Positions 10,899-28,071 of a stretch of DNA of 52,945 nt are shown one piece after another (the stretch's first letter is position 1; each line of letters begins with the position of its first letter). Source of the DNA: Candidatus Yanofskybacteria bacterium (lineage in GTDB: Bacteria > Patescibacteriota > Minisyncoccia > 2-02-FULL-40-12 > IGHO2-01-FULL-4-A); the NCBI GenBank assembly GCA_016181175.1, contig JACOZV010000004.1:73718-126662 (forward strand), written 5' to 3'. A program made the position numbers and the translations under genes. Below the pieces are notes generated by a model. It saw only the letters and a program-made list of their open reading frames with translations. It was not told the DNA's origin and made no database searches.

Positions 10899-11090
10899 TC
10901 AAAAATTACAAACCCCAAGCCGATACCAATCGGCGGTTTTTATCGTTCGCAAATTAACAAGATAGACTTCCAGCGAAGCGAGTTTCCCGGCGGAGGCGCG
11001 CGCGTTTTGCGCCTGTCCCGAAGGGCCAGCAAAACACGCGCGCGTAGCCGGAAAATAAACTATTTTGCTGTTTCAGTTTGTAATTTTTGA
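10899..11090 (+). repeat. TIR-bounded structured intergenic element, copy A (MITE-like)
   Basis: Starts TCAAAAATTACAAACC and ends GTTTGTAATTTTTGA. Hairpin 1 is GCCGAT-acca-ATCGGC. Hairpin 2 is at 10987-11051. No ORF. Its hairpin/TIR parts are near-identical to copy C. Confidence 0.75.
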
Positions 11091-11095
11091 TGAAA

Positions 11096-11650
11096 TTAAA
11101 AGCTAACCTTCACCGGTTCTTTTTCGGCGGAATTGCCAAGCTCGAAAAACTGTTCTTTTTTAAATCCGAACATTGAGGCAACCATATTGGTCGGGACCTG
11201 CTCAATCTTGGTATTGAGGGTCAGAACATTGGTATTGTAGAATCGACGAGCAGCTTGGATTTTATTTTCGGTATCGGACAATTCATCCTGCAATTTAGCA
11301 AAATTCTCCGAAGCGCGCAGAGTCGGGTATGCTTCGGTCAAAGCAAAAAGATTCTTAAGGGCACCTGACAGTATATTCTCGGCTTGACCGTGCTCGGCCA
11401 CGCCATGCGCTCCCATAGCGGCAGAACGCGCCTTTATCACTCTTTCAAAAACATCTTTTTCGTGGCTAGCATAACCCTTTACGGTTTCAACAAGGTTTGG
11501 AATTAAGTCGTACCGCCTCTTTAACTGGACATCAATATCTGACCATGACTCTTTAACACGATTACGCGATCTGACTAGCGCGTTAAAAGCCCCGGCCAAC
11601 CACAAAACCACCACAGCCACGATTATTAAAATTATATATGTAATTGACAT
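11096..11650 (-). CDS. lemA: LemA family protein
   Basis: 184 aa. N-terminal TM segment plus LemA signature (RYDLIPNLVETVKGYA.HE...F..V..AR, RRFYN). Confidence 0.9.
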   Translation of the reverse strand: MSITYIILIIVAVVVLWLAGAFNALVRSRNRVKESWSDIDVQLKRRYDLIPNLVETVKGYASHEKDVFERVIKARSAAMGAHGVAEHGQAENILSGALKNLFALTEAYPTLRASENFAKLQDELSDTENKIQAARRFYNTNVLTLNTKIEQVPTNMVASMFGFKKEQFFELGNSAEKEPVKVSF

Positions 11651-11652
11651 AA

Positions 11653-12000
11653 TTAAGATTTGACAAAAACCGCGTTTTCTAATTTATCAACTCGCTTTTT
11701 AACCTGCTTAATTTCTCTGTTTAGCGACACATCCAAATTTTCTACCTTATTTACCACTCCGATAAGCTCTGATTCTATACGATCAACCTTGTTTTCAAGA
11801 ACATCAAACCTGCCGTCCATATCCTCAAATCTCTTATCTATCTGCCCAAATCTTTTATCTACTTGCCCAAATCTTTTATCTACTTGCTCAAATCTTTTAT
11901 CTACTTGCTCAAATCTCTTATCTACAGCATTAAAACCATTGCCTACCATTAGGGCCAATTTATCTAAAGTCATTTTGCCTTTTTTATTTTTCTCTGCCAT
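11653..12000 (-). CDS. Small coiled-coil protein with tandem heptad repeats (VDKRFEQ)x5
   Basis: The ATG at 12000 (MAEKNKKGKMTLDKL...) avoids overlap with fusA. Sequence AVDKRFEQVDKRFEQVDKRFGQVDKRFGQIDKRFEDMDGRFDV is followed by coiled-coil sequence. Function unknown. Confidence 0.55.
   Translation of the reverse strand: MAEKNKKGKMTLDKLALMVGNGFNAVDKRFEQVDKRFEQVDKRFGQVDKRFGQIDKRFEDMDGRFDVLENKVDRIESELIGVVNKVENLDVSLNREIKQVKKRVDKLENAVFVKS
11826..11930. repeat. 21-bp tandem repeat x5 (coding, heptad repeats)
   Basis: CAAATCT(C/T)TTATCTA(C/T)(T/C)TGC(C/T) repeated head-to-tail five times. Copies 3 and 4 are identical. Confidence 0.85.
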
Positions 12001-12037
12001 TACAATTAACCTTAACAAAAAGGAGTGTGTCGTGCAA

Positions 12038-14146
12038 CTATTTTTTGCCTTCTTTAATTTGCTCGGCGATATTATTCGGGACTTCTTCATAATGGTCAAA
12101 CTCCATCGTGTAAGTCCCCCTGCCTTCGCTAAGAGAGCGGATTGTGGTGGCATAACCAAACATTTCCGAGAGAGGAACCTTGGCATCAATCACCTTGAGG
12201 TTGAGCGGTGAACGGTCGGACATCTGTTCAATTCTGCCTCGGCGTGAGTTAAGATCGCCTGTGGCCTCACCCAAGAATTTGTCTGGCACAATGACTTCAA
12301 CTTTCATAATCGGTTCTAGCAATACTGGTTTGGCGCGTCTTGTGGCTTCCTGCAATCCCATGACTGCGGCAATCTTAAAGGCAATTTCTGAAGAATCCAC
12401 TTCATGGTAGGTGCCGTCATATAAAGTAACTTTTAAATCAACCAAAGGATAACCGGCTATCACGCCCTTATCCAACGCTTCATGAACACCCTTCTCAACG
12501 GCAGGGATAAATTCCTGCGGGATAACACCACTTCTGATCGCATCAACAAATTCAAAACCACCGCCACGCTCCTGCGGTTCAACTCGCAACCAAACATGAC
12601 CGTATTGACCACGTCCGCCCGACTGTCTGATATATTTACCCTCTGCTTGGGCTGTTTCCCTGATTGTTTCTTTATAAGCAACCTGGGGGCGGCCCACATT
12701 GGCACCAACACTAAACTCCCGTTTCATACGATCAACAATAATATCCAAATGTAATTCGCCCATGCCAGAAATTATTGTTTCAGCTGTCTCCTCGTCTGTC
12801 TTTATCCTAAATGTCGGATCCTCGTCCGAAAGCTTCTTGAGTGCCAAACTCATTTTTTCCTGGTCTGCTTTTGTTTTGGGCTCTATACGCAAAGAAATAA
12901 CCGGCTCCGGAAAAACTATTTTTTCAAGAATAATAGAATTGTTCTGATCGCAAAGCGTATCTCCGGTTTTGGTCGCCTTGAGTCCCACCGTAGCCGCAAT
13001 TCCTCCTGTAAAAACTTCTTTTATTTCCTCACGGTCATTGGCACGCATACGAAGGATTCTTCCAATTCTTTCTTGTTGACCAGTAGAACTATTTAGAACA
13101 TAGGAACCAGCAATAAGCACGCCTGAATAGACTCTAAAAAATGTTAGTTGACCAACATATGGATCAGTAGCAACCTTGAAGGCTAGCGCAGAGAACGGAG
13201 CAGCATCACTTGGTTCACGGCTAAGCTCGCTGCTAGTTTTGGGATCAATTCCTTTGACTGGCGGTTTGTCTACGGGTGAAGGCAGATAATCCACGACACC
13301 ATCCAAAACAAACTGCACGCCCTTATCACGCAAAGCCGAACCAGCAAAAACGGGCACTAGCTTATTTTCAATTGTTGCCTTACGCAAAATCTTCTTAAGT
13401 CGTTCGGTTGTAATTTCTTTGCCTTCAAGATATTCAGACATTGTCTCATCGTCATGTTCAACAATTTTCTCAATTAACTCGGCTCTCAATAATTCTGCTC
13501 GCTTGCGCAGGTCTTCAGATGGTATTTCAGCCTCAACGACACGCTCTCCGTGCTCACCCTCAAATCTGAAATACTTCATATCAAGAAGATTAACGACACC
13601 CTGGAATTGATCCTCTTCACCGTCGGGAATCTGCACACGAACAGCATTAGGCGTTAGACGCTCAAGAATTGATCTATAGGAACGGTCGAAAGATGCACCA
13701 AGACGATCCAGCTTATTTATAAAACAAATTCTTGGCACGCCGTATTCATCGGCATAACGCCAATTTGTTTCCGATTGCGGTTCTACGCCGGCAACGCCGT
13801 CAAAAACGACAACTGCACCGTCAAGAACGCGCAATGATCGCTTTACCTCAACCGTAAAATCTATATGGCCCGGCGTATCTATAATATTAATACGATGCTC
13901 GGTGTCTTTGTTTTTGGTCATACCGGTCGGCACCCAATAGCAAGTAACCGCGGCGGCGGTAATGGTAATACCGCGCTCACGCTCTTGTTCCATCCAATCG
14001 GTTACGGTTTCGCCCTCGTGTACCTCTCCGATTTTGTGAGATACGCCGGTGTAAAACAAAACGCGCTCGGTAACAGTAGTTTTGCCGGCGTCAATGTGAG
14101 CTATTATTCCAATGTTTCTAATTTTTTCTATTAAAAAATCTGCCAT
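12038..14146 (-). CDS. fusA: Translation elongation factor G
   Basis: 702 aa. [10 protein letters not shown]1 motif, DTPGH, NKLD, and full EF-G domain order. Confidence 0.95.
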
Positions 14147-14360
14147 TGATTTTTGATTTACTGTAAAAATAAAGAAAAAAGCTATAAAGCCATGGGGCTA
14201 TATAGCCATAGTGCCTCTTTTAATAGTAGCAAATCCAGCGATTGAGTCAATTTTTCTAAAGGTTAGAAAAATAAACTGAAAACAACCCGTCAGAAATTTA
14301 ATGACCTTATGGGCATTTTTGTTGCAAAAAATAAATACGTGTGTTAAATTGCTAGTTATT

Positions 14361-14636
14361 ATGCCAATAACTAAGTCGGCCCAAAAGGCCCTAAGGCAAT
14401 CAAAAAGAAGAAAACTTCAGAACTCCAGGCGGAAAACAAAATTCCGCTCTTTGGTTAAGGAATTCAGACAGACTGTCGCAGCAAAGGATTTTGATAAGGC
14501 AAAACAGATATTGCCGGCAGTTTACAAGGCGCTAGACAAGGCTGCCAAAACAAATGCCATTAAAAAAAATAGGGCCAGTCGATTGAAATCCAGGCTAACA
14601 AAATCATTAAGCCAAAATAAAAAAACTCCGAGCTAA
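14361..14636 (+). CDS. rpsT: 30S ribosomal protein S20
   Basis: MPITKSAQKALRQSKRRKLQNSRRKT... is a typical S20 N-terminus. The ATG at 14361 is preferred over the track start at 14301. Confidence 0.9.
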   Translation: MPITKSAQKALRQSKRRKLQNSRRKTKFRSLVKEFRQTVAAKDFDKAKQILPAVYKALDKAAKTNAIKKNRASRLKSRLTKSLSQNKKTPS

Positions 14637-14651
14637 ACTCGGAGTTTTTTT
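14621..14651. terminator. Intrinsic terminator between convergent rpsT and the 14665 gene
   Basis: A-run, CTCCGAG-ctaaa-CTCGGAG, T-run. The rpsT stop codon lies in the loop. Confidence 0.7.
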
Positions 14652-14664
14652 ATTTACTGGCCAT

Positions 14665-15216
14665 TTAAGGAGTTGCTGTGGGAGTCGGCGATCCGGCAGG
14701 ACTTACCGACGGACTAAAGGTTGGCATTGGTTTGTTGGCCCTACACGCCTTATAAGTCCTCTCTGCAAGTTTCCATGCATTTTCTGCGGCTTTTTTATCT
14801 AAGGCAAATTTAACTTGAATGGTTTTCTTGGCAGTCTGGTATTTCTTCTTGGCATCCTTGCTTTTGTCGGAAGCATTCCAGGCAGCACGCGCGGTTTCCA
14901 TTGATGCTAAGTATTCCTTTCGCGCTCCTTCCTTGGCATTTTTCCAGGCTTGTCTTGCCCTCTCAAACGGTTCTTTGCAAGATTCTTTTCTGGCTTTCTC
15001 AACTCGTTTTTGTTCCTTTTTGACCTCGGCTTCCAGCTTTTTTTCTTCTGCCTTAACACGACCCCTGTTTTCGTCTGACTTGGGAGTTTTACTGGGAGTG
15101 GGACTGACAATTACAGTTGGAGTCGAAGTCGGCGTTGGGCTTACGTCATCTGCAAAAGCCGTAAATGCCGAAAACGCAATCGCCAACGAAACGGTCGTTG
15201 AAACTACTCTCTTCAT
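14665..15216 (-). CDS. Secreted Lys/Ala-rich hypothetical protein
   Basis: Signal-peptide-like N-terminus (MKRVVSTTVSLAIAFSAFTAFA), Pro/Thr/Ser linkers at both ends and a charged helical core. I recognise no family. Confidence 0.55.
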   Translation of the reverse strand: MKRVVSTTVSLAIAFSAFTAFADDVSPTPTSTPTVIVSPTPSKTPKSDENRGRVKAEEKKLEAEVKKEQKRVEKARKESCKEPFERARQAWKNAKEGARKEYLASMETARAAWNASDKSKDAKKKYQTAKKTIQVKFALDKKAAENAWKLAERTYKACRANKPMPTFSPSVSPAGSPTPTATP

Positions 15217-15402
15217 AAATCTTAAAAATGGTCTGGGAATTTGAACTAATCAGCCAAGCTGATTGGTTATTCAAAACCTAAACCGATTGATTAGTTTACT
15301 TAAAACTCGCGGTTTCTCGACGCAACCGCTATGTTTAATTATAGCAGTAAACCAAGCGGTGGCAAAGCATGTTGAAAACAGCCAAAAGTAGGAAAGATAG
15401 TC

Positions 15403-16497
15403 CTATCCGTGCCTGGAAATGTTTAAAACGATTCCCAAACCGGCCATAATAGATACCAAAGCCGAACTGCCAAAACTTATAAATGGCAAAGGCAGTCCTG
15501 TAAGCGGAATCATGCCGGAGATGGCAAATATATTAATAAGCGCTTGGCCGCAAACCCAAGTTGTTACGCCCAGAACCAGCAGTTCGCCGAATTGATTGCT
15601 TACGGTCTTGGCAATATTTATCATGGCTAGCGACAAGGCCAAAAACAGCGAGAGAAGAAAAGCCCCGCCAACAAGGCCAAGCTCTTCAACAACTATCGCG
15701 AAAATTGAGTCGCCTACCGGTTCGGGAAGGAAATTTATTTTTTGTCGGCTTTGGCCGAACCCCAAGCCAAAAATACCGCCGGAACCTATTCCCAGAAGAG
15801 CCTGGTTAATATGATAAGAAGTATCTTGTTTATCGGACGAAGGATTAAAAAAGGCCTTAAGTCGGTCAAATCTATACGGCTCAACGACCGATAGCGCGCC
15901 AAGTAAAATACCCGCGACTAGAATTAAAACAACAAAGTGAGAAAATTTGGCGCCTGCAAAAAAGTACATTGACAAAGCAATTAAGGCAACCAAAACCAAC
16001 GTTCCCATATCCGGTTGGGATAATAGCAAAACACCAACGAAACCAAGCACCAACAGAAACGGGGCCAATGATTGTATCCTTTCTCCTATTCGTCCGTCTC
16101 GCCTGCTGAACCATGCGGCCAGATAAATAACAAGTGAGAGCTTCAGCACCTCCGAAGGTTGGAATGTAAAAATTTTTAGATCCAACCACCTTTGCGCCCC
16201 TCTCAAGCCATAGCCGATACCCGGCACGAAAACCAACACCATCAAACCGATTACCGCAACCAAAAGTGGCAAAGCAATTTTTTTCCAAAATTTGTAATTT
16301 ATCCTGGAAAAAAGTAAAAAGAGGGCCAAACCAGGCAAAACACCATAGAGAAACTGGTGGAGAAAATAGTAAGAAGGCGAACCGAAGCGTTTCTGTCCTT
16401 CAACTACGCCAGCGGAAGAAAGCATAACCAAACCAAAAACAATCAGAATAAAAACCAGTATCGTCAAGGTTTTACCAGATTTGGAAATCTGCATCAT
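15403..16497 (-). CDS. ftsW: SEDS-family peptidoglycan glycosyltransferase (FtsW/RodA)
   Basis: 364 aa with about 10 TM segments and typical FtsW/RodA motifs (QPSE..K, PDMGT, LPEP.GDSIFA). The FtsW versus RodA assignment is uncertain. Confidence 0.85.
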   Translation of the reverse strand: MMQISKSGKTLTILVFILIVFGLVMLSSAGVVEGQKRFGSPSYYFLHQFLYGVLPGLALFLLFSRINYKFWKKIALPLLVAVIGLMVLVFVPGIGYGLRGAQRWLDLKIFTFQPSEVLKLSLVIYLAAWFSRRDGRIGERIQSLAPFLLVLGFVGVLLLSQPDMGTLVLVALIALSMYFFAGAKFSHFVVLILVAGILLGALSVVEPYRFDRLKAFFNPSSDKQDTSYHINQALLGIGSGGIFGLGFGQSRQKINFLPEPVGDSIFAIVVEELGLVGGAFLLSLFLALSLAMINIAKTVSNQFGELLVLGVTTWVCGQALINIFAISGMIPLTGLPLPFISFGSSALVSIMAGLGIVLNISRHG

Positions 16498-16513
16498 GGT
16501 AGAGGCCGATTTA

Positions 16514-16713
16514 TTAAAATTACAAACTTAACTGGTAGAAAAATTTATCTACCGGCTACGTGCACGTGTTTTGCTGGTCCTTCGGGACAGGCGCAAAACG
16601 CGCACGCCTCCACCGGTAAATAACATCCCCTTCTTAGTAATTATAAAAGTGATAAAAATCACCCCGACATCCGCCTGCTGGCGGAGTCGGGGGTTCCCGG
16701 TTTGTAATTTTAA
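16514..16713 (-). repeat. TIR-bounded structured intergenic element, copy B (opposite orientation to A and C)
   Basis: AAAATTACAAAC at 16516-16527 and GTTTGTAATTTT at 16700-16711. Hairpin 2 at 16552-16616 carries an apical C(TTCG)G at 16581-16584 on the + strand. Confidence 0.7.
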
Positions 16714-16833: not shown

Positions 16834-17388
16834 CTAGCAGTCTCGTTTAACAGGAATAGGTTCCAGCCGTGGCTGGGGTGCAAATAGTCCTTCAACCCAT
16901 TTGCGAACCTTGCTTTTGCCGGGTGGAAGCGGGACAACCACCACAAAATAATTATAAATTGACAAGCCAATAAAAAAACCGACTCTGGCAACTACTTCTA
17001 GTATTAAGTAGCGGGTTTCATAAATATACAATGGCAAAAAAATAATTTCAAAAACTACCCAAGACAAACAGTAAATCCTGAACCAAAAATTATTTCTTTC
17101 TAGCTTTACAACTTCTGACGAAAAAAGGTTCTCTTCTGCTTTGTTGCATTTTTGAATCGAGGGACCAAATATCAAAACACTAAAGATAAGAATGGCTATA
17201 TCAAACATGTTGCTTTTAACCGTCAAAAAAGGTAAAAAATAATTTATAACCCGAACAAATGTTCCAAAAATGGCAAGAAAGATCCCCATTTTGGCAAAGA
17301 AATAGCATGTCAGCCCGGTTAATTTTTGGAACCAATGGCTGAATTTTGTAAGTTTTTCAATGATCTTACTATCCAGAGCTCGCAACAT
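16834..17388 (-). CDS. Hypothetical integral membrane protein
   Basis: 184-aa ORF with about 4 hydrophobic segments. No recognisable family. Confidence 0.45.
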   Translation of the reverse strand: MLRALDSKIIEKLTKFSHWFQKLTGLTCYFFAKMGIFLAIFGTFVRVINYFLPFLTVKSNMFDIAILIFSVLIFGPSIQKCNKAEENLFSSEVVKLERNNFWFRIYCLSWVVFEIIFLPLYIYETRYLILEVVARVGFFIGLSIYNYFVVVVPLPPGKSKVRKWVEGLFAPQPRLEPIPVKRDC

Positions 17389-17454
17389 CTCATCCCCCTA
17401 GCAACTTATAGATATAAGAATTATGCTAACATTTTATTAATTTATAGTCAAGTT

Positions 17455-18522
17455 TCAAAACAATGGCGGTATTTTTGAGTCTACCAAAAAAATTATCAGT
17501 CCGATTATTGCTCCTATTGCGCTGATCATCCAGAATCGCATAGTTACTTGCGTCTCTGGCCAGCCGCGGGCCTCAAAGTGATGGTGAATCGGCGTGGAAA
17601 GAAAAATCTTCTTGCCCCGCAACCGCTTAGATGACAGCTGAATAATTACCGACAACGACTCAATTATGAATACTGCCCCAATCGGTATTAAAAGAAGTGG
17701 CGTATTGGTAAGCATCGCAATAATGCCCAACACCACACCCAAAGACATTGAGCCGGTATCGCCCATGAAAAATCTGGCCGGAAAAATGTTATACCACAAA
17801 AATGCTATCAGCGCGCCCATTATTGCCGCTATAAAAGTCACTAGATCCATCCTGCCCTGGTCAAAAGCAATGGCGCCGTAAGCGGCAAACATGGTTAGAA
17901 ATGTACCTGCCGCCAAACCGTCCAGACCGTCTGTTTCGTTGGCAGAAAATGAAGTGGCGACAATAACCAAAATAAAGAATGGTATATACCACCAGCCAAT
18001 GGTAAAATCCCCAAGAAACGGAATATTTAAAGAATTGAAGCCGAGCTTATAGAAAAACCACCAAGCGCCGCCTGCGGCCACTACCGTGTAAAGCAACAGA
18101 CGGTATTTCATCCTTAACCCGCCGCCTTTAGGACCGATGCGCATAACGCCCAAAATGTCATCGGCCAATCCAACCAACGCCGCGACAGCCAAAGCACCCA
18201 ACGGCAGCCAGGTTTGACCACGAGAAAAAAAATTAACACGCGACCAAAAACCGTCAACAGATTTGGAAAGATACCAGAAAAGCAAGGTCAAAATTGTCAC
18301 TGTAACCCAAATTAAAACTCCGCCCATAGTCGGAGTACCCTCCTTTGACTTGTGAAGCCGATTAAAAATCGGAGCGCCTTCAGCGCGCAGTTGTTTCCCC
18401 ATCTTGTACTTATACAGAATCTTCATCCAAAGCGGCGTCAGCGCCAGGGAAACAAAAAACGCCAGTGCCGCCACCACGAAAACTCTAACTACATTAAAAA
18501 TTGTGAAAATATTTTCTGCCAT
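17455..18522 (-). CDS. mraY: Phospho-N-acetylmuramoyl-pentapeptide transferase
   Basis: 355 aa. MraY motifs: TPTMGG, NETDGLDGLA, GDTGS, HHHFE. Confidence 0.93.
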   Translation of the reverse strand: MAENIFTIFNVVRVFVVAALAFFVSLALTPLWMKILYKYKMGKQLRAEGAPIFNRLHKSKEGTPTMGGVLIWVTVTILTLLFWYLSKSVDGFWSRVNFFSRGQTWLPLGALAVAALVGLADDILGVMRIGPKGGGLRMKYRLLLYTVVAAGGAWWFFYKLGFNSLNIPFLGDFTIGWWYIPFFILVIVATSFSANETDGLDGLAAGTFLTMFAAYGAIAFDQGRMDLVTFIAAIMGALIAFLWYNIFPARFFMGDTGSMSLGVVLGIIAMLTNTPLLLIPIGAVFIIESLSVIIQLSSKRLRGKKIFLSTPIHHHFEARGWPETQVTMRFWMISAIGAIIGLIIFLVDSKIPPLF

Positions 18523-19461
18523 TTATTCCCAGCTATAAGCTGTCTTTCCCCATTCGATTAGCTTCTCGGTTTCTCCAAAACGATTCTGCGAACCAAGTAC
18601 TACGGAAATGAGGCCGTCGCCAACGTTGTCTAATCCGACCTCAAGAACCATTGTGCCAAGGGCATTGTCCGTATATCCGGTTTTACCGATTATAATCCCC
18701 CGAATCTGGTTAAGCAATTGATTGGTATTAACCAAGTGGTGCGGTATCCTGCCATCCGCAGAACTCACGTCCATCGTTGTTGCTTTTAGTGTTCCGGAAA
18801 TTAACTCGTAACTTTTGGCGTAACTAACCAATTTTATCAAATCTGAAGCAGTTGAAAAAGCATCATAATCATCCAAACCCGCCGGATCAGTAAATTTGCT
18901 GTTGGCCATACCCAAGTTTTGGGCTTTTTCATTCATTTTGGCAACAAAATCGATGCCCAATTTTTGCGCTTCAGTGGCCAAGGTCAATGCCGCGTCATTT
19001 GACGATTTAACAAGCATAATCTTAAAAAGATCAGCCACGCGCAATTGTTCGTTTTTAAAAAGATCGGCACCATTACCATCCACGTTTATAGACTCCACCG
19101 GCACGGAAAAAATTTGATTAAGATCCAAGTTCTCTAAAACCACAATGGCACTCATTAGCTTAGTAATTGAAGCGATGGGCAATCTTTTGTTGATATTTTT
19201 TGCAAAAAGAAAACGTCCGGATTTAACGTCAACCAAAGCAGCGGCTCTAGCTTCGATTTCCGGTTCCGGCACATTAAAATCTCTGACCGGTGAATAGCTA
19301 ATTTCTGAAACCGGCAAAAGGAATGCTTGTTGTCCTTCACTTGGCGGTTGAACCGCCAAGTTGGTGTTTGGGACATCTACCGGATATCCGAAAATAAAAA
19401 AAACCGCCCCACTGACCAACCCGCCCAAAACAATTGTAAATAAGATTACATTTGGCCTCAT
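18523..19461 (-). CDS. D-alanyl-D-alanine carboxypeptidase (peptidase S11)
   Basis: N-terminal TM anchor. SITKLM (SxxK), SSND (SxN) and KTGYT (KTG) motifs appear in the correct order. Confidence 0.85.
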   Translation of the reverse strand: MRPNVILFTIVLGGLVSGAVFFIFGYPVDVPNTNLAVQPPSEGQQAFLLPVSEISYSPVRDFNVPEPEIEARAAALVDVKSGRFLFAKNINKRLPIASITKLMSAIVVLENLDLNQIFSVPVESINVDGNGADLFKNEQLRVADLFKIMLVKSSNDAALTLATEAQKLGIDFVAKMNEKAQNLGMANSKFTDPAGLDDYDAFSTASDLIKLVSYAKSYELISGTLKATTMDVSSADGRIPHHLVNTNQLLNQIRGIIIGKTGYTDNALGTMVLEVGLDNVGDGLISVVLGSQNRFGETEKLIEWGKTAYSWE

Positions 19462-19490
19462 TTAATTTAAGCTTGGAAGAGCGAACCCCG

Positions 19491-19681
19491 TCAAAAATTA
19501 CAAACCCCAAGCCGATACCAATCGGCGGTTTTTATCGTTCATAGATTGATAAGAAAGGTGCTAGCCCGACGGATGTACCGGCGGAGGCGCGCGCGTTTTG
19601 CGCCTGTCCCGAAGGGCCAGCAAAACACGCGCGCGTAGCCGGTAAATAAAGTTTTGTGCTAATTAAGTTTGTAATTTTTGA
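19491..19681 (+). repeat. TIR-bounded structured intergenic element, copy C
   Basis: Same termini and the same two hairpins as copy A. The central spacer has diverged. The inverted repeat extends to CCGTC/GACGG (19488-19684). Confidence 0.75.
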
Positions 19682-21082: not shown

Positions 21083-21114
21083 TTAACCTAATAGTATTAT
21101 AAAAAACAAAACTA

Positions 21115-22140: not shown

Positions 22141-22257
22141 ACCCCGTTAGAAGTCGCCCTTACTGGTTTATTTTCAACAACTATTAATAACTTAAAAGTT
22201 TACCGAAACAGTTTTAACTTATGCATAAGGCTGCACAGCAGCGACTTCTAACGGGGT
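22141..22257. repeat. 17-bp perfect inverted repeat enclosing an 83-bp AT-rich segment
   Basis: ACCCCGTTAGAAGTCGC at 22141-22157 and GCGACTTCTAACGGGGT at 22241-22257. The interior contains the palindrome CTTATGCATAAG. Confidence 0.8.
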
Positions 22258-22284
22258 CAATATCAACAAGCAACGCTCAAAAAT

Positions 22285-22312
22285 AAAACACCGCGCTCAA
22301 GCGCGGTGTTTT
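22285..22312 (-). terminator. Intrinsic terminator after rpsG
   Basis: AAAACACCGCGC-ttga-GCGCGGTGTTTT followed by ATTTTT on the minus strand. Confidence 0.75.
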
Positions 22313-22326
22313 ATTGAATCAAATCA

Positions 22327-22794: not shown

Positions 22795-22796
22795 TT

Positions 22797-23207
22797 TTAT
22801 TTGGGTCTTTTGGCTCCATACTTACTTCTGCCCCTGCGTCTTGCATCAACTCCAGCGGAATCTAGGCGGCCGCGTACTATGTGATACTGGACGCCAGGCA
22901 AGTCCTTGACTCTACCGCCACGCAATGTAACCACAGAGTGTTCTTGCAAATTATGTCCTACACCGGGAATATAAGCCGTTACTTCCATGCCATTAGTCAA
23001 TCTAACACGAGCAAATTTACGCAATGCAGAATTTGGCTTTTTTGGTGTCATGGTGCCAACTTTTATCGCTACTCCGCGCTTGAAAGGTGCATTAAAAAAA
23101 ATGGGTTTATTCTCAAGGCTGTTGAAACCAAACGACAAAGCCGGCGATCTTGTTTTCGTTTTAGCCCTGCTACGAGGATGTTTTAATAACTGATTTATTG
23201 TAGGCAT
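22797..23207 (-). CDS. rpsL: 30S ribosomal protein S12
   Basis: MPTINQLLK...[51 protein letters not shown]. Confidence 0.95.
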
Positions 23208-23249
23208 TTTATCTTTACAATTAGGCTACATTAAAAGGCGTTTTCGCCT

Positions 23250-23858
23250 TTATCCAATTATAATCCTAAATAATAAATTAATCAAGGGAAAAAGTAGAGG
23301 GAAAATAAAAATTAAAAAGATAATAAAAAGTATAAAATTATACCGCAACATGAATACCTTAACCGCCGTAAATCTAGCCGGTAAAAATGTCAGTAATAAC
23401 CAGTGGCCATCCAGAGGCGGAATTGGCATTAAATTAAAGATTGCGAGCGTCAAATTAAGCAATACAATAAAAGATAGGAGTTGCGGCAATACGGTCGCCT
23501 CAAGAGATGCAGGCAAAAATCTTATCAAAGTTCCAAATAAAATGGCAATTATTATATTAACTGCAGGGCCCGCAAAAGCCACCTTGGCCGGGCCAAATTT
23601 TCTATCATTCAAGTTGGCCGGATTATATGGCACCGGTTTAGCATAACCAAAAACAAAACCACCGGCCCAAAAAGTAAAGAGCGGTAAAAGCACGGAACCA
23701 AACCAATCAAGATGTTTGAGGGGATTTAATGTAATCCTGCCCAGGTCTTTGGCTGTATCATCGCCCATACTATGAGCAATCACGCCATGGGATACTTCGT
23801 GTAAAACAACCGAAAACAAGACAACGATTATATTAAATAATCCGATAACCAATGACAT
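23250..23858 (-). CDS. Site-2 protease family (peptidase M50) membrane protein
   Basis: HEVSHGVIAH (HExxH) within the first TM region, a later NLMPIPPLDG motif, and about 6 TM segments. Confidence 0.75.
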   Translation of the reverse strand: MSLVIGLFNIIVVLFSVVLHEVSHGVIAHSMGDDTAKDLGRITLNPLKHLDWFGSVLLPLFTFWAGGFVFGYAKPVPYNPANLNDRKFGPAKVAFAGPAVNIIIAILFGTLIRFLPASLEATVLPQLLSFIVLLNLTLAIFNLMPIPPLDGHWLLLTFLPARFTAVKVFMLRYNFILFIIFLIFIFPLLFPLINLLFRIIIG

Positions 23859-23898
23859 ATACTTGCAAGATTAGCAATTTTAAGTTAATGTGTAAACC

Positions 23899-24081
23899 AT
23901 GACCAGATGTCCGCGTTGCGGCAAAAAACCGGTGATGGCAAATAAACGCAAACTTTTGCGCGGTCATTATAATCCCGTAAATCGCTATCGCAAATATCCC
24001 AATCTGCAGTGGGCCAACATTGACGGCAAACGCATCATGATTTGCACCTCGTGTATTAAAACACTTGGCAAAATAAAATAG
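23899..24081 (+). CDS. rpmB: 50S ribosomal protein L28 (zinc-ribbon variant)
   Basis: MTRCPRCGKKPVMANKR...RYRKYPNLQW fits the L28 pattern M.R.C..GK.p..gN...R..PNLq. It has two CxxC pairs. Confidence 0.65.
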   Translation: MTRCPRCGKKPVMANKRKLLRGHYNPVNRYRKYPNLQWANIDGKRIMICTSCIKTLGKIK

Positions 24082-24085
24082 GGCA

Positions 24086-24156
24086 CGGGGTATAGTGCAA
24101 CGGTAGCACGAGTCCATGGGGTGGATTTAGTCCCGGTTCGAATCCGGGTACCCCGA
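24086..24156 (+). tRNA. tRNA-Pro (anticodon GGG)
   Basis: CGGGGTA-TA-GTGC-AACGGTA-GCAC-G-AGTCC-ATGGGGT-GGATT-TAGT-CCCGG-TTCGAAT-CCGGG-TACCCCG-A. G37 is consistent with tRNA-Pro. No CCA is encoded. Confidence 0.85.
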
Positions 24157-24162
24157 CATGTT

Positions 24163-24200
24163 ATAACAAAAACCGGCCATACGTGGTCGGTTTTTGTTAT
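24163..24200. terminator. Bidirectional hairpin terminator between tRNA-Pro and the convergent Nudix gene
   Basis: ATAACAAAAACCG-gccatacgtggt-CGGTTTTTGTTAT, a 13-bp stem with A/T runs on both sides. Confidence 0.65.
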
Positions 24201-24215
24201 AATGAGCTTTTTAGT

Positions 24216-24701
24216 TCAAAATCTTTGCCATTCAGTTTTTTTACTCTTGCGTTGATTTTCAGCCATTAGTAATTCATCATATATACCATCGATAAGTTTG
24301 TAATTTACGGCTTCTTCGAGTGTAACCCACTGGAATTGATCGGTTTCGTCCGGCTGTAACACAACATCGCCAGACTGATAATCGGCTAAACAAGAAATGA
24401 CCAGCGAAGGATTGCCATCACCATGCACCGTAGCCAAACTTGTCACATATGCGATATTTGTAATATCCAAACCAACTTCTTCTTTCACTTCACGCCGCAG
24501 AACTTTTTCAAGAACATTGTACCAATAGTCAGTCGTGTCTTTGGGTAAGTTTATGTAATCATCTGTTTCCAATTTACCGCCGGGCACAGTCCACATCCCA
24601 GGAAAGCGTTTTTTGTTGAAAGAACGGCGAGTAATCAAATATTTGCCGTCTTTAACGATAATTGCTGTAATAGCCACTTCGTGTAAAAATTTATTATCCA
24701 T
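24216..24701 (-). CDS. Nudix hydrolase
   Basis: Nudix box GGKLETDDYINLPKD...REVKEEVGL. 161 aa. Confidence 0.8.
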   Translation of the reverse strand: MDNKFLHEVAITAIIVKDGKYLITRRSFNKKRFPGMWTVPGGKLETDDYINLPKDTTDYWYNVLEKVLRREVKEEVGLDITNIAYVTSLATVHGDGNPSLVISCLADYQSGDVVLQPDETDQFQWVTLEEAVNYKLIDGIYDELLMAENQRKSKKTEWQRF

Positions 24702-24729
24702 ATTAAAATTTATAAAAAATTTAAAAGCT

Positions 24730-25233
24730 TTAATCTTCTTTTAGAGTAAATTTCGTATACGACGGCTTGTGATTTACCAACTCTTCGTGTTTAAACCAAA
24801 CGCTTATTTCCGCCTCTGCCTCTTCGGGTGAAGCCGAGGCGTGAATAAGATTGAAAACTCCGATTTTTTTATCATCGGCATAGCCATATGAAACATGGGT
24901 ATAATCCCCCCTGATGGTACCCGGGACGGCAACCTTGGGTTCGGTGGCACCGACCATTTTTCTGGCAACTTCAACCATCTCCACACCTTCAAGAACCAAA
25001 GCAACAATCGGACCAGAAATTAACATGTCAATCATTCTTTGTCTGATTGTCTCCCCCCTCCTTTGAGCCAGGTCTTCCGTATAATGTTTCATGGCAGTAT
25101 CTTTTTCAGATACCAACATCTTCAGACCAACAATCTTAACGCCAACACGTTCAAATCTGGTGATTATCTCACCTATTATTCCCCTATCTAGAGCGTCTGG
25201 TTTTAATAAAATTAGTGTTCTTTGTAATATCAT
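24730..25233 (-). CDS. ndk: Nucleoside-diphosphate kinase
   Basis: RTLILLKPDALDRGIIGEIITRFE..G.KIVGLKM and the catalytic His region NLIHAS. Confidence 0.9.
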   Translation of the reverse strand: MILQRTLILLKPDALDRGIIGEIITRFERVGVKIVGLKMLVSEKDTAMKHYTEDLAQRRGETIRQRMIDMLISGPIVALVLEGVEMVEVARKMVGATEPKVAVPGTIRGDYTHVSYGYADDKKIGVFNLIHASASPEEAEAEISVWFKHEELVNHKPSYTKFTLKED

Positions 25234-25279
25234 GGTTTTAGTTAACTATTTTGAGCTTGAAGAATAATGTCTTATAGCA

Positions 25280-25380
25280 CCGTTGAAAGGGTGGATTGCA
25301 TGGTCACCGAGCAGTATAATGGTTGAACTGCGAGGTGAATCCACGCTTTCAACGGAGCGACGCAACCTCGCTGGGGTTGC
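25280..25380 (-). promoter_or_regulatory. Highly structured ~100-nt segment between the MBL gene and ndk (candidate leader or processing RNA)
   Basis: The 18-nt arms CCGTTGAAAGGGTGGATT (25280-25297) and AATCCACGCTTTCAACGG (25338-25355) have one mismatch. They enclose a nested hairpin CACCGAGCAG/CTGCGAGGTG. A second hairpin GCAACC-tcgctgg-GGTTGC lies at 25362-25380. Confidence 0.35.
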
Positions 25381-25398
25381 TAGCGGTGATAGAAAGCA

Positions 25399-26283
25399 TT
25401 ATTCATCAAGCTCAATTTCATAATTTTGACCATCCAATATTAATTCCACCACGCCATCAATATCCGTCCGATAATATTTTATATCATATTTTTTAAGCCG
25501 ATCCAAGATTCCTTGATAAGGAAGGCCATATTTATTTTTCTTTCCGACTTCAATAAAAGCCACCTCGGGATTAACTGTTTTCAAAAAATCCTCCGTCGTA
25601 GATGTTTTACTGCCATGGTGACCTATCTTTAAAAATTGGGCGCTTAAACTGGCTCCACTGGCCAGAAGCTTATATTCAATCTTGGCCTCGGCATCGCCCA
25701 TAAACAATATGCCGTCGTCGCCGTAGTCCAGGCGCAATACCACCATTGCATCATGCGAATTTCTAAGCGATGCGTCATCAGCATCAGGATCGGGCGGAGA
25801 CAAAATTGTAAGTTTCGCCCCGCCGCCTAAGTCAATAATTTGTCCGGCTTCTGCTTGAGTAGTTATAAATGAAGATTTTTCTTTATTCCATTCGGCATAG
25901 TCTGCCGTATTATACGAGGTATAATTTTCAATTATCTGTCCGACTTCGTATTTTTTTAAAATCTCAATTAATCCTGCAACATGATCAGCATGAGGATGTG
26001 TCAGTATAACCAAATCAATTGATTGGTCATAAAACGGCATAATCCTGCCAAGCTCTTGCAGAATTCTGCCGTCCGGTCCCCCATCAATAAGCACTTGGTT
26101 GCCATTAAAATCTATTAGTTCGGCATCACCTTGTCCTACGTCAAGAAAATAAACATGCAACAGGCCATCGCTTTGAGCCCCGGCATTAACGGCGACAAAA
26201 CTTAAAACAACAGCGGCAGTTATGAAAATGAAAACTGACCACTCAAGTTTGGATAACTTACGCAAAGACAGTGAAGCTGGCAT
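25399..26283 (-). CDS. Membrane-anchored MBL-fold metallo-hydrolase (stand-alone ComEC C-terminal-type domain)
   Basis: N-terminal TM anchor, HPHADHVAG metallo-beta-lactamase motif and a later GHHGS. It lies immediately downstream of comEC. Confidence 0.8.
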   Translation of the reverse strand: MPASLSLRKLSKLEWSVFIFITAAVVLSFVAVNAGAQSDGLLHVYFLDVGQGDAELIDFNGNQVLIDGGPDGRILQELGRIMPFYDQSIDLVILTHPHADHVAGLIEILKKYEVGQIIENYTSYNTADYAEWNKEKSSFITTQAEAGQIIDLGGGAKLTILSPPDPDADDASLRNSHDAMVVLRLDYGDDGILFMGDAEAKIEYKLLASGASLSAQFLKIGHHGSKTSTTEDFLKTVNPEVAFIEVGKKNKYGLPYQGILDRLKKYDIKYYRTDIDGVVELILDGQNYEIELDE

Positions 26284-26308
26284 TAGTTCCTCATAACATA
26301 AAAGTTCA

Positions 26309-27865
26309 TCACTTGGAAAGGACTTTTTGTTTTTTTGTTAAACTTCTCAAAAACCATACCAAAATACAGTAGGACACTAACAACATCGGCCAGCTAAAAC
26401 TAATCGCAAGCGTAGCCCAACTTGGCGCCGCCAACAATTTAATAATCTTGAGCTCTATGGTAGTTAATAACCAAGCAAAATAACCGAAAAATTGTCCTAA
26501 AAACGGCATGATTATGCCGATAAGGCCACTAATAAAGCCCAGAAGCATGGCAAACGGTATGGTCGGCAAAATGATAATATTAGCAGGCAACGAAGTTAAA
26601 GAAAAATTTTTAAAATAGTAAATCAAGAGCGGCAGAACTAAGAGTTGAGCCGATACCGTCATGGCAAATGTTTCACGCAAGTTAAATAACCTGGGCAGTT
26701 TTGTAAAATATTTTTCAAGGACCGGAAACACGTAGATGAGTCCGAGCGTCGCCGCGAAAGACAATTGAAAACCTATGTCATAACGCAAAATGGCTGGATT
26801 AATCAAAATCATTACCGCGCCGGCAAGGGTTATCGCATTGCGCGGATCACTCAATCTCCCCTCTCTCTGTGCCAGCAAAACTAAAGAACCCATAATAGAC
26901 GCCCGCACCACAGAAGCCTGCGCTCCTGTCAAAACAGTAAACATGGCCACACCAATTAATGAGAACCAAAAAGCCGTCTGCCTCCTTAAAAACAAAATAA
27001 AAAAAGAGGAAATAACCATGACCACTATCGTAATATTGTAACCAGACACCGCGAGAATGTGGCTGGTGCCGGTACGAGAAAAATCGTCTTTAACGTCTTG
27101 CGGAATCTGTGAGCGACTGCCAAGAAGTATCCCGTTGATAAACACCGCGTTGGGTTCGGCGATTGATCTGGTAATTGAGTCTTCAAACGTTTTTTTAAGG
27201 ACAAAGATTTTTTTAAAAATTAAGATTTTTGCATATTCATACTTACTTAGGAGTTGAACTCCTAAGTTGTCTGCAATTTTAATCTCCGGATAAAAAAGCG
27301 TGGTGTATATTCTGTCTTTAGCCAGATAAGAAATGTAATCAAAGTCATCAAAATTTTCAGGTTTTTTAATATTGCCGTAAACCCACAGTTGATCACCATA
27401 CTGATACCTGGGATAGAGTTCTGTTGTAATCAAAACTCTCTCTTCGACCACAACCATGTATGGCGGCACGTTTAGTTGTTTCGCATAAAAAGAAAACCTC
27501 TGCTTATTGCCGATGACTTCAGGTTCATTAGATATATAGCCCAAAATGGTAACTTTTATGGGATGTTTGTTCTGCGGATCTACAACCCGTTCTTGTGCTT
27601 CAGCAAACTTTTGGAGATTGTGAGTCTTGGAGTTAACGGCATTATAACGCAAAACTCCAGCAAAAAAGAAAAGGGTCACGAAAGCGGCAAAAGCCAATTT
27701 GACGTTAAGCAAACCGGAGTCACGACGGTAGAAAATGGCGATAAGCGCCGCGCAGATTACGGCCGCAACCAAAGCTGTGATTTTTGAAATATTAAAAAAC
27801 GAACCGGCAAAAATGCCGAGAACAAAAGAAAGGAGAATATAAAAAAATATCTGTGAACGATGCAT
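26309..27865 (-). CDS. comEC: ComEC/Rec2 DNA internalisation channel (DUF4131 plus Competence domains, no MBL domain)
   Basis: Polytopic membrane protein with the typical core GTSHILAVSGYNITIV...GAQASVVRASIMG. The ATG at 27865 (MHRSQIFFY) is preferred over the track start at 27895, which lies inside repeat copy D. Confidence 0.85.
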   Translation of the reverse strand: MHRSQIFFYILLSFVLGIFAGSFFNISKITALVAAVICAALIAIFYRRDSGLLNVKLAFAAFVTLFFFAGVLRYNAVNSKTHNLQKFAEAQERVVDPQNKHPIKVTILGYISNEPEVIGNKQRFSFYAKQLNVPPYMVVVEERVLITTELYPRYQYGDQLWVYGNIKKPENFDDFDYISYLAKDRIYTTLFYPEIKIADNLGVQLLSKYEYAKILIFKKIFVLKKTFEDSITRSIAEPNAVFINGILLGSRSQIPQDVKDDFSRTGTSHILAVSGYNITIVVMVISSFFILFLRRQTAFWFSLIGVAMFTVLTGAQASVVRASIMGSLVLLAQREGRLSDPRNAITLAGAVMILINPAILRYDIGFQLSFAATLGLIYVFPVLEKYFTKLPRLFNLRETFAMTVSAQLLVLPLLIYYFKNFSLTSLPANIIILPTIPFAMLLGFISGLIGIIMPFLGQFFGYFAWLLTTIELKIIKLLAAPSWATLAISFSWPMLLVSYCILVWFLRSLTKKQKVLSK

Positions 27866-27878
27866 GGTGTTCGTTGTA

Positions 27879-28071
27879 TCAAAATTACAAACCAACCTAT
27901 ACCGAAGAGCTCGATAACCAGCTACGCGAGTTCTTTTTGTTCAATCCACCCGATTACGGGATTTTTCACAAAAAGCCTCGCCTACGCCGAAATAACATCC
28001 TCTCGGTATTGATTATCTAGTTGCTAAACGCACGCCCATCTGCTGATGGGCTTGGGGTTTGTAATTTTTGA
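27879..28071 (-). repeat. TIR-bounded structured intergenic element, copy D (divergent interior)
   Basis: TCAAAATTACAAACC at 27879-27893 and GTTTGTAATTTTTGA at 28057-28071. Hairpin 1 is GCCCATC-agca-GATGGGC (read on the minus strand). Hairpin 2 has the same geometry as in the other copies but a different sequence. Confidence 0.65.

Follow-up and report, generated by a model that had tools for sequence, protein, structure and literature searches.

Four copies of a short, structured intergenic element were identified in the window, the 52,945-nt stretch of a Candidatus Yanofskybacteria (CPR) chromosome analysed here (GCA_016181175.1, contig JACOZV010000004.1, positions 73,718-126,662), and 12 further members were found outside it in related MAGs and metagenomes (Yanofskybacteria/Paceibacteria), which extended the family beyond the four copies of the preliminary description. 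On balance, we lean towards an undescribed, mosaic MITE-like family, that is, non-autonomous mobile elements bounded by terminal inverted repeats (TIRs) and mobilised in trans in Candidatus Yanofskybacteria and related Paceibacteria.

Structure of the element

The four window copies (191-202 bp each, ORF-less, two per orientation) were all delimited by exact AAAATTACAAAC / GTTTGTAATTTT ends. Copy A (10899-11090, + strand) was flanked by the CTP synthase start at 10877 and the LemA stop at 11096, ran antisense to the two genes, and comprised a left TIR (TCAAAAATTACAAAC, 10899-10913, +), a hairpin 1 (GCCGATACCAATCGGC) with a T-run in the shape of an intrinsic terminator (10919-10941, +), a 68-nt hairpin 2 (CCGGCGGAGGCG...CGCGTAGCCGG, 10986-11053, +) with covariation and a covariance-model hit of 93.4 bits, and a right TIR (GTTTGTAATTTTTGA, 11076-11090, +). 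Copy B (16514-16713, - strand) was sense to its flanking genes, with ~16 nt between it and the FtsW start downstream (TIRs 16514-16527 and 16700-16713; hairpin 1 ~16662-16692; hairpin 2 16550-16617). Copy C (19491-19681, + strand) was placed 12 nt from the AsnRS stop and 29 nt from the start of a DacA-like gene (TIRs 19491-19505 and 19667-19681; hairpin 1 19511-19526; hairpin 2 19577-19644). Copy D (27879-28071, - strand), the most divergent, was sense and had the ComEC ATG ~14 nt downstream (TIRs 27879-27892 and 28057-28071; hairpin 1 ~28034-28051, without a T-run; hairpin 2 27916-27991); its hairpin 2 folded as in the other copies from a different sequence.

Alignment and folding bore out the preliminary description as to the positions of the four copies, their orientations (A and C one way, B and D the other) and their common order of TIR, hairpin 1, spacer, hairpin 2 and TIR. 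The close match claimed for A and C outside their spacers was also recovered (88% identity, with the spacer as the main difference); B shared 68-70% identity with these two, and D 61-63% with each of the other three. Fold z-scores of the window copies ranged from -6.6 to -8.2. The elements were non-coding, as had been proposed: no conserved ORF was found among the family members compared, and a 25-codon frame over hairpin 2 of some copies was disrupted in D and in the L009 member. An independent assembly (L097, SRR12113430) matched the window at 100% identity over 17290-19520 and terminated within copy C, so the element is no artefact of a single assembly.

The 12-mer AAAATTACAAAC occurred exactly 8 times in the window, in every case at one of the eight element ends, and at ≤1 mismatch 12 window sites were found compared with 1.38 expected (0 of 100 shuffles reached 12). 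The complementary TIR arms spanned 14-18 nt in the window copies (A, ATCAAAAATTACAAAC; C, CCGTCAAAAATTACAAAC; B, TTAAAATTACAAAC) and 14-19 nt over the family, and the exact 12-nt core was present at 32/32 ends of the 16 members. The shared ~15-nt TIR first reported thus held for its identical inverted ends, but only the 12-nt core was invariant, since the outer 3-6 nt, which bring the repeat to 15-18 nt, differed among copies. No direct repeat indicative of a target-site duplication was seen at any of the 16-18 copies checked; the flanks adjoining the ends tended to complementarity (CCGTCA/TGACGG, CTCATCA/TGATGAG, ATATCA/TGATAT). The identical TIR also enclosed other cargo at L005 6944-7291 and L095 9622-9983, and such different cargos within the same TIR point to the ends as the recognised part.

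The two hairpins, which were unrelated to each other, varied in different ways. Hairpin 1 was represented by five mutually unrelated stem sequences in the 16 copies, 14 of which had a T-run (TTTTTATC) after a GC stem; this intrinsic-terminator-like form survived all five sequence replacements. Hairpin 2 was conserved as a structure of 68 nt, in which compensatory changes occurred and the internal loop (5'-GGAG / G(U/G)A-3') was itself conserved. In its alignment 94.6% of cells were paired and 11/24 pairs showed both-sided change; none of 500 shuffles reached the observed values on 4/5 measures, one of 500 did so for further pair types, and slid controls collapsed. Most one-sided changes, counted from the alignments, turned C into U, a change that G-U pairing accommodates on the forward strand but not on the reverse, and the forward-strand fold was the more stable in 14/15 copies, with a tie in L008b. 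This variation suits one strand better than the other and fits a single-strand structure (RNA or ssDNA). Hairpin 2 is probably a protein-binding or processing site, needed either for mobility or for the insertion to be tolerated. No sigma-70-type promoter was found within the elements. The loop motif GGCGGAGG was additionally observed in other palindromic elements (L008 7793-7961, L095 9790 and L099), and several further families of long-hairpin intergenic elements were noted in the same genome.

Distribution and occupancy of orthologous sites

In ~217 kb of CPR loci, 16 occurrences of hairpin 2 were detected, all within an exact TIR pair and none elsewhere. The members were 182-253 bp long, with a non-coding interior of 160-225 nt, and were confined to the very short spacers between genes, usually at a distance of 5-30 nt from a start or stop codon. 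In most copies 5-21 nt separated the hairpin 2-side end from the end of a gene (the distance to the called ORF boundary was greater in D and L013), the neighbouring genes of all copies were housekeeping genes, and the structure-bearing strand was antisense to the flanking genes in 9-10/16 copies. Contigs from independent assemblies broke within the element, as expected of a repeat.

The results revealed empty orthologous sites in close relatives, the comparison by which the preliminary description had proposed to judge mobility. Empty/filled contrasts were present at at least 5 sites among relatives ~90% identical in housekeeping proteins. The A-site was empty in L008 and L096, where the TAA of LemA was followed immediately by the ATG of CTP synthase, and the filled site carried 26 extra nt outside the TIRs, so that the difference exceeded the element itself. 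The B-site was empty in L008 and filled with different cargo in L095. The C-site was empty in L011 and L012 (15-nt junction gap) and in L095 held different cargo within the same outer ends and flanks. The D-site was empty in L098, and L099 kept the TIR and flank with other cargo. Relatives also bore copies at sites vacant in the window, such as the L008b site, which was likewise empty in L095 and L096. At three orthologous sites (B, C and D), the TIR and flank were retained around an interior of a different class, a difference not easily explained by independent transposition to the same nucleotide.

The closest relative of each copy was at a non-orthologous locus in another genome (87-89% identity), compared with only 63-73% identity for same-site copies across genomes, and subtypes cut across loci and genomes. 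Upstream of DacA, the element of the window ran antisense and those of L008 and L009 ran sense.

Origin of the family

In the mobile-element reading that we favour, a trans-acting enzyme (a transposase, or possibly a site-specific recombinase) would recognise the conserved ends and move the intervening segment, leaving no detectable duplication, and the inner modules would then be reassorted by recombination among copies. Hairpin 1 with its U-run has an intrinsic-terminator form on the forward strand, which gives the interior a polarity, and co-transcribed TIRs would shut the entire element into one long stem-loop. The element would then serve between genes as a terminator or RNA-processing block whose action depends on orientation, a proposal that fits the surplus of copies in the non-terminating orientation (9-10 vs 5-6).

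MITEs are defined as elements of <500 bp with TIRs of 4-30 bp that occupy AT-rich intergenic sites and lack a transposase; direct repeats flank young copies, and related IS mobilise them in trans (PMC10969869). The MITE fit proposed at the outset stood in that the elements were small (<500 bp), non-coding, TIR-bounded, intergenic, dispersed in multiple copies and both orientations, and polymorphic in insertion. It did not extend to flanking direct repeats, which were absent; a transposase was found neither among the called window ORFs nor in the parts of related loci that were covered. Two features exceed a plain MITE: the interior was a mosaic of structural modules with a covarying hairpin, and cargo was swapped at three sites. 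Because direct repeats decay with age (PMC10969869), the missing duplication does not exclude MITE membership.

The search for a mobilising enzyme covered all called window ORFs, ~20 of ~45 ORFs in related loci L001-L007, and, for the protein-anchored loci L008-L012 and L095-L100, the gene annotations computed beforehand. Neither an autonomous parent nor a transposase was found in the window or, in the related loci so covered, within a few kb of the copies. A longer ORF-bearing element with the same ends was likewise absent from the window and the examined parts of related loci. A TIR scan of viral contigs yielded chance singletons only, and no plasmid or phage match to the element was found. 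In Rfam, only three tRNAs passed the gathering score in the window and E-value scans of A and D gave chance hits only (<19 bits), which agrees with the preliminary description, where no RNA family could be named. The missing duplication, the complementary flanks, the lack of a transposase in the parts covered, the 26 extra nt at the A-site and the swapped cargo all count against the mobile-element reading, as does hairpin 2, whose structure is conserved more strongly than is usual in a purely selfish MITE.

That conservation bears on an unlikely but serious alternative, in which the element is a structured-RNA module of the host: an intergenic cassette of a terminator, a protein-binding or processing hairpin and a long closing stem, which selection would maintain for its part in punctuating operons or processing mRNA. 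It would spread through homologous recombination or the horizontal exchange of entire intergenic regions rather than through transposition. The covariation and fixed internal loop of hairpin 2, its forward-strand G-U bias, the retained terminator form of hairpin 1, the proximity of the hairpin 2-side end to gene ends, the shared GGCGGAGG loop and the other long-hairpin families of the genome are all consistent with such a module. However, a host module would not be expected to lie in both orientations to its flanking genes, with the structure-bearing strand mostly antisense, to keep ends invariant in sequence beyond mere complementarity, or to be patchily distributed among close relatives at essential genes; the lack of an internal promoter and of an Rfam match also weighs against it.

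The swapped cargos suggest a different and rather more doubtful account, in which the inverted ends are sites of a serine or tyrosine site-specific recombinase that inverts the segment, exchanges its cargo by double recombination, or both; read-through into the next gene downstream would then be gated by the direction in which the terminator-like hairpin 1 faces. Invertons such as E. coli fimS and the Mpi-controlled polysaccharide promoters of Bacteroides fragilis comprise 150-350 bp between short inverted repeats directly upstream of genes, and several loci per genome share one inverted-repeat consensus; they are fixed in position and bear promoters. The anatomy here matches theirs (~190 bp between inverted repeats of 12-18 bp, with 9-30 nt from the element's end to the start codon downstream), both orientations exist, as upstream of DacA, cargo differs within retained TIRs and flanks at the B-, C- and D-sites, and target-site duplications are absent. 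Large serine recombinases, the only such enzymes seen, are encoded at 51224-52825 of the window and in L009 and share 45% identity, but their genes adjoin no copy and have no link to the TIR. Correia elements have also been reported to invert (PMC10969869). On the other hand, the same cargo was never seen in both orientations between identical flanks, and orientation was the same in both same-population comparisons of assembled contigs (L097/window and L010/L009). Many orthologous sites were simply empty, with no TIR remnant, which requires insertion or deletion and makes inversion alone insufficient; no promoter was detected, and the essential housekeeping genes served would be odd targets for phase variation. 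We give a similarly low probability to the broader proposal of stable recombination slots in the spacers of ultra-small genomes, between which a site-specific recombinase would invert and exchange structured non-coding cargos of at least three classes (the hairpin-1/hairpin-2 cassette, 'module X' and ~350-nt cargos). Such slots would resemble Xer/dif module cassette exchange or invertons, but with non-coding RNA structures and in CPR bacteria, and, if real, would amount to a shufflable set of terminator and RNA-structure cassettes that rewires transcription between essential genes.

A single-strand (HUH/Y1, IS200/IS605-type) element, moving as ssDNA with one-strand hairpin recognition and duplication-free insertion, would account for the missing duplication, the strand-specific conservation of hairpin 2 and the subterminal hairpins close to both ends, but is very improbable, as IS200/IS605 elements are not known to have TIRs and have two similar end hairpins, whereas here the TIRs were perfect, hairpin 1 was not conserved in sequence and was unlike hairpin 2, neither TnpA nor TnpB turned up among the ORFs examined in the sampled loci, and no IS605/omega-RNA-type Rfam match was obtained.

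Known systems and significance

Correia elements (CREE/NEMIS) carry 26-bp TIRs and a TA duplication; the element described here has a 12-15 bp core, no visible duplication and a CPR host, shows no sequence similarity to them, and differs in its mosaic interior, which is assembled from interchangeable structural modules and includes a conserved hairpin with covariation. In other respects these archetypal bacterial MITEs of Neisseria are alike, being ~100-200 bp, non-coding, TIR-bounded and intergenic, often immediately beside the start or end of a gene; they lie in either orientation, and their occupancy varies among strains (PMC10969869). Their transcripts fold to a long stem-loop, and promoters, terminators, RNase III cleavage at the TIRs and inversion have been reported (PMC10969869). 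Pneumococcal BOX, RUP and SPRITE and enterobacterial BIME and ERIC are likewise small, interspersed, highly structured intergenic repeats, judged parasitic and co-transcribed with neighbours; BOX and BIME are modular mosaics, and SPRITE resembles a Rho-independent terminator (PMC3049150; PMC10969869). The sequences and taxa are unrelated, and here the same termini also flank entirely different cargos. To our knowledge, BOX and BIME have no strictly conserved bounding TIR. The Tn3-derived TIMEs have ~38-bp Tn3-type inverted repeats and 5-bp duplications, both absent here. The likeness is that in TIMEs, as in other mosaic non-autonomous transposons, pairs of transposon ends can mobilise any intervening DNA and give rise to mosaic non-autonomous elements (PMC4133298).

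MITE-type repeats in CPR/Patescibacteria have no report in the searchable literature, and a 2024 review of prokaryotic MITEs does not mention these bacteria (PMC10969869). The family described here is a dense set of structured repeats filling spacers beside essential genes (CTP synthase, FtsW, D-Ala-D-Ala carboxypeptidase and ComEC). Genomes of this group are ~1 Mb, tightly packed and usually called streamlined and repeat-poor. The differing occupancy of the family among genomes ~90% identical in protein sequence indicates that these lineages have active mobile or recombining non-coding DNA, and its copies break metagenomic assemblies at contig ends. The retained ends with swapped cargo hint at a recombination mechanism, and the conserved, covarying hairpin, whose internal loop is fixed, is a candidate site for protein binding. 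The repeats probably influence how transcription terminates and how mRNA is processed in these organisms.

Conserved ends and modular interior of the elements

We examined copies A (10899-11090, +), B (16514-16713, −), C (19491-19681, +) and D (27879-28071, −) and found all four as the preliminary description had reported. The 12-mer AAAATTACAAAC, the core of the terminal inverted repeat (TIR), occurs exactly eight times in the 52,945-base window, each time as an end of one of these elements; with up to one mismatch there are 12 window sites against 1.38 expected, a number reached in 0 of 100 shuffles. Because the 12-mer is confined to element ends, roles of the TIR as a general promoter, DNA-uptake sequence, parS or DnaA box were rejected. 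The complementary arms at the ends span 14-18 nt. Alignment in one orientation, with B and D reverse-complemented, agreed with the common layout claimed earlier: TIR, short GC-rich hairpin 1, spacer, long GC-rich hairpin 2, AT-rich tail of ~25 nt, TIR. Copies A and C are 88% identical, B shares 68-70% with A and C, and D shares 61-63% with the other three; all fold far better than shuffled controls (z-scores −6.6 to −8.2). A contig assembled independently from run SRR12113430 matches window 17290-19520 at 100% identity and breaks off within copy C, indicating that the element is real and acts as a repeat in assembly.

The interior was compared with that of members on related loci (L numbers; suffixes a and b mark separate copies on one locus). 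Hairpin 1 comprises five unrelated sequences, each a GC-rich stem-loop, with computed stabilities of −2.5 to −40 kcal/mol, the weakest value being that of a truncation of the L007 stem. In 14 of 16 copies, TTTTTATC or a sequence very like it comes next, and hairpin 1 with this T-run is, by predicted structure, of intrinsic-terminator form on the forward strand. The spacer is of two types, alpha and beta, and hairpin-1, spacer and hairpin-2 types combine differently among copies, which argues that copies recombine with one another. A frame of 25 codons that spans hairpin 2 in copies of the beta type was rejected as a hidden peptide, being truncated or out of frame in D and L009.

Hairpin 2 has a conserved base (CCGGC-GGAG-GCG ... 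CGC-G(U/G)A-GCCGG), and its upper stem is wholly different in D, L009 and L013 with pairing retained. In an alignment of 14 sequences, pairing covers 94.6% of cells, and both partners vary in 11 of 24 pairs; the observed covariation was reached by 0/500 shuffles in four of five measures and by 1/500 for further pair types, and the signal was destroyed by sliding partners. A hand count of one-sided substitutions gave ~8 C-to-U changes that yield G-U pairs on the forward strand and one or two tolerated on the reverse strand only, and in 14 of 15 copies the better fold is that of the forward strand (L008b is a tie). Pointing to the reverse strand instead are a conserved C-A mismatch in the stem and that strand's UUCG loop, and the assignment of hairpin 2 to the forward strand is therefore suggestive rather than settled. 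Its internal-loop motif GGCGGAGG recurs in other palindromic elements of these genomes. SRP-RNA-like or K-turn-like identities were discarded, with no model in support.

The covariation favours a structured-RNA module of the host. Against it, both orientations occur, occupancy beside essential genes is patchy, and no internal sigma-70 promoter was found by scan or by eye in the aligned spacers; we consider this explanation unlikely. On balance, at slightly better than even confidence, we read the elements as a new family (family 1) of non-autonomous, TIR-defined mobile elements, MITE-like as in PMC10969869 and moved in trans.

Distribution and site occupancy

One genome per species was searched for pairs of ends separated by 150-180 nt, which gave six true members, spread over three MAGs (two Yanofskybacteria, one 'Paceibacteria'), and one unrelated Omnitrophota match (L006). 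Two further members, L013 and L020, came from a metagenome scan, and loci fetched through protein homologues, which are unbiased regarding the TIR, contributed L008a, L008b, L009 and L095a. The search for further copies suggested earlier thus yielded members in related MAGs and metagenomes. Loci L006, L014-L019 and L021-L024, ten of them from the metagenome scan, were rejected as members: they carry the 12-mer without hairpin 2 and represent unrelated AT-rich repeats or other families. One of them, soil-metagenome locus L018, holds at 2370-2593 a perfect palindrome of ~200-220 nt whose outer ends, TCAAAAATTACAAAC, equal the family TIR and whose interior is unrelated. A covariance model of hairpin 2 found 16 instances in ~217 kb of CPR sequence, 16/16 within an exact TIR pair and none outside; L095a scored 90 bits although it was outside the training set.

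The Rfam/Infernal scan proposed in the preliminary description, run over the whole window at gathering scores, matched the elements to no family, and relaxed E-value scans of copies A and D, a small-RNA candidate and a second long-hairpin element, module X (both described below), gave nothing real. BLAST of copy A found no match among PLSDB plasmids or INPHARED phages. Viral contigs scanned with the 16-nt TIR gave 70 single matches, which is chance level; the sole apparent pair, L070, was dismissed, lying inside phage coding genes at 30% GC. A full-text literature search returned no paper that connects Patescibacteria or Yanofskybacteria with MITEs or inverted repeats.

Close protein relatives of the window genes are named Candidatus Yanofskybacteria, which makes the window part of a CPR (Patescibacteria) chromosome. 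Three relatives are syntenic with the window (L008/L098, L095/L099 and L096; MraY or CTP synthase 89-91% identical). From one site to the next, the genomes differ in occupancy, and the empty orthologous sites sought since the preliminary description were found. The LemA/CTP synthase site is filled in the window (A; the filled locus is 26 nt longer than the element alone accounts for) and, by other elements, in L095, and is empty in L008 and L096, where TAA is followed directly by ATG. The hyp/FtsW site is filled in the window (B) and L095 and empty in L008, which has a 56-nt spacer with its own small terminator, in intergenic DNA too diverged from the window for an exact empty-site alignment. 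The AsnRS/DacA site is filled in the window (C) and empty in L011 and L012 (15-nt gap), the site upstream of ComEC is filled in the window (D) and L099 and empty in L098, where GatA runs straight into ComEC, and the CTP synthase/M48 peptidase site is filled in L008 and empty in the window, L095 and L096. Each copy has its nearest relative at a non-orthologous locus of another genome (A and C with L003, 87-89%; B with L005a, 87%; L008a with L095a, 89%), and copies at the same site are merely 63-73% identical. In sequence comparison, this is the pattern of elements whose movement or conversion appears to outpace the divergence of the genomes.

Differing cargo between conserved ends and the possible mode of movement

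At three orthologous filled sites (B, C and D), the TIR and adjacent flank are conserved and the interior is of another kind. At the B-site, the window carries hairpin-1 type b with spacer beta and L095 type a' with spacer alpha+, both with unusual TTAAAATTAC ends; at the C-site, the window's hairpin-1/hairpin-2 cassette and the unrelated module X cargo of L095 both lie between CCGTCAAAAATT ... AATTTTTGACGGGGTTC; at the D-site, window D and a different, larger cargo in L099 share the ending GGTTTGTAATTTT(T)GATA.AAC...ATGCA. Ends of AAAATTACAAAC also enclose larger cargos of ~220-360 nt at L005 6941-7294 (fold z-score −12), L095 9622-9983 and L099 3775-3991 (one recognisable TIR only); those of L005 (6944-7291 by a slightly narrower delimitation) and L095 measure 350-360 nt. 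Inside these cargos lie another inverted repeat, nested within the first (CCCCCTAATTTTTCT / AGAAAAATTAGGGGG), and a GGCG(G/T)AGGGGG motif.

The target-site duplications that the preliminary description proposed to look for were not seen: no direct duplication was found at any copy, with several possible boundaries checked. The bases just outside the 12-mer are usually TCA...TGA, and farther out they are often complementary, not repeated (C, CCGTCA / TGACGG; L001, CTCATCA / TGATGAG; L007, ATATCA / TGATAT; L008a and L009, CTC / GAG). Likewise, the autonomous parent that it proposed to look for did not appear in the window or the related-locus ORFs examined: no transposase was detected by Pfam among all called window ORFs and 20 of the ~45 ORFs of L001-L007, or in the precomputed gene annotations of L008-L012 and L095-L100. 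The only recombinase-type genes in these ORFs were large serine recombinases in the window (51224-52825) and L009 (1491-3233), paralogues that are 45% identical and adjoin no copy. The window ORF (region 51190-52825) encodes 533 aa with Resolvase, Recombinase and Zn-ribbon domains and overlaps tRNA-Leu(CAA), which is encoded on the other strand; ~100 nt upstream, at ~51190, part of the tRNA-Leu 5' end is repeated (GCCGCTGTGG), and the region may be the edge of an integrated element.

Slots in which a recombinase inverts or exchanges cargo between the ends would account for both the missing duplication and the recurrence of the same ends around other cargo, but two same-population comparisons revealed no inversion and many sites are cleanly empty, making this explanation quite unlikely. 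An IS200/IS605-type single-strand element is very improbable, being contradicted by the perfect TIRs and the unrelated hairpins.

For the favoured MITE-like reading, the earlier MITE proposal holds in size, TIRs, copy number and insertion polymorphism and falls short in the target-site duplication, which in MITEs decays with age (PMC10969869). With that duplication missing and no autonomous partner found in the ORFs examined, we file the elements as MITE-like rather than proven MITEs. A simple cut-and-paste MITE also sits poorly with the 26 surplus nucleotides at the A-site and with conserved ends that enclose cargo of different kinds. An enzyme acting in trans would recognise the invariant ends and move the element, and the modular interior, with its terminator-shaped hairpin and conserved single-strand structure, would reassort through recombination between copies. 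The closest analogues are Correia elements, BIME/ERIC and the pneumococcal BOX/RUP/SPRITE repeats (PMC10969869, PMC3049150), and the anatomy resembles that of invertons; no sequence or model similarity to any of these was found.

Orientation and other structured repeats

Every neighbouring gene is a housekeeping gene, those adjoining A-D all lying on the minus strand (CTP synthase, LemA, EF-G, FtsW, MraY, D-Ala-D-Ala carboxypeptidase, an AsnRS-type synthetase and ComEC), with ribosomal proteins, a type IV pilus cluster and ParAB farther along. The elements almost fill their spacers: A lies 5 nt past the LemA stop and 22 nt ahead of the CTP synthase ATG, C 12 nt past the AsnRS stop and 29 nt ahead of the next gene, and B and D end ~14-16 nt ahead of the FtsW and ComEC start codons, respectively. 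Among family members, 9-10 are antisense to the flanking genes, with the terminator-like strand not the mRNA strand, and 5-6 are sense. The hairpin-2 end lies 5-12 nt past the upstream stop codon in antisense copies (129 nt in L001) and mostly 9-21 nt ahead of the downstream start codon in sense copies (45 nt in L013). In this small sample the non-terminating orientation is in excess, as would be expected if selection acts against terminating insertions within operons. The effect on the host would be orientation-dependent termination, and co-transcripts may form a long TIR-closed stem-loop, likely an RNase III-type substrate, as reported for the TIR stem-loop of Correia elements (PMC10969869).

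Two neighbouring features of the window were recorded separately. Between copy D and the next gene, 28142-28297 (+) contains a near-perfect sigma-70 promoter (TTGACA-N17-TATACT, with TG), a predicted GC-rich transcript of ~115 nt and a clean intrinsic terminator (CCCCACTGCAGAAACGTGGGGTTTTTTATTTTTT); antisense to all neighbours, it is a candidate orphan small-RNA gene. Between LemA and EF-G, an ORF with tandem 20-nt repeats at 11800-11930 (CAAATCTTTTATCTACTTGC and variants) probably encodes a repetitive coiled-coil protein.

Besides family 1, the window and its relatives contain other families of intergenic elements with long hairpins and TIRs at their ends. Module X (core GGATTGCATGGTCACCGAGCAGTATAAT...AATCC) lies at 25251-25415, between the NDK and metallo-beta-lactamase-fold genes, recurs at L008 18135-18300, L095 146-338 and 950-1119 and L099 6760-6900, and adjoins family-1 copies in L004 and L007; its cores are near-identical, and its outer arms are completely different yet complementary. 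A third family has two copies in intergenic spacers (22141-22257 and 40618-40728), with perfect 17-nt arms (ACCCCGTTAGAAGTCGC, ATCCCATTAGAGGTAGC) around an AT-rich interior of 77-83 nt. In three genomes, structured repeats have a hotspot in the syntenic block that runs from AsnRS to the M48 peptidase. After the AsnRS stop, L008 carries at 7775-7985 a near-perfect 210-nt palindrome with different ends (CAACGGTTTTCCTTGC; fold z-score −9.4), which combines the hairpin-2 internal-loop motif (GGC-GGAG-GCC ... GGC-GGA-GCC) with a module-X-like core. Extra hairpins lie within loops of hairpin 2, hairpin 1 and the spacer (L008 17899-18043, in hairpin 2 of L008b; L009 8790-8850; L008 8880-8920), and these hairpin-in-hairpin insertions in L008b, L009 and L008a suggest that loops tolerate insertions or are even targets for them. 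Together, the further families and the nested insertions indicate that structured repeats are a general feature of these supposedly streamlined genomes.
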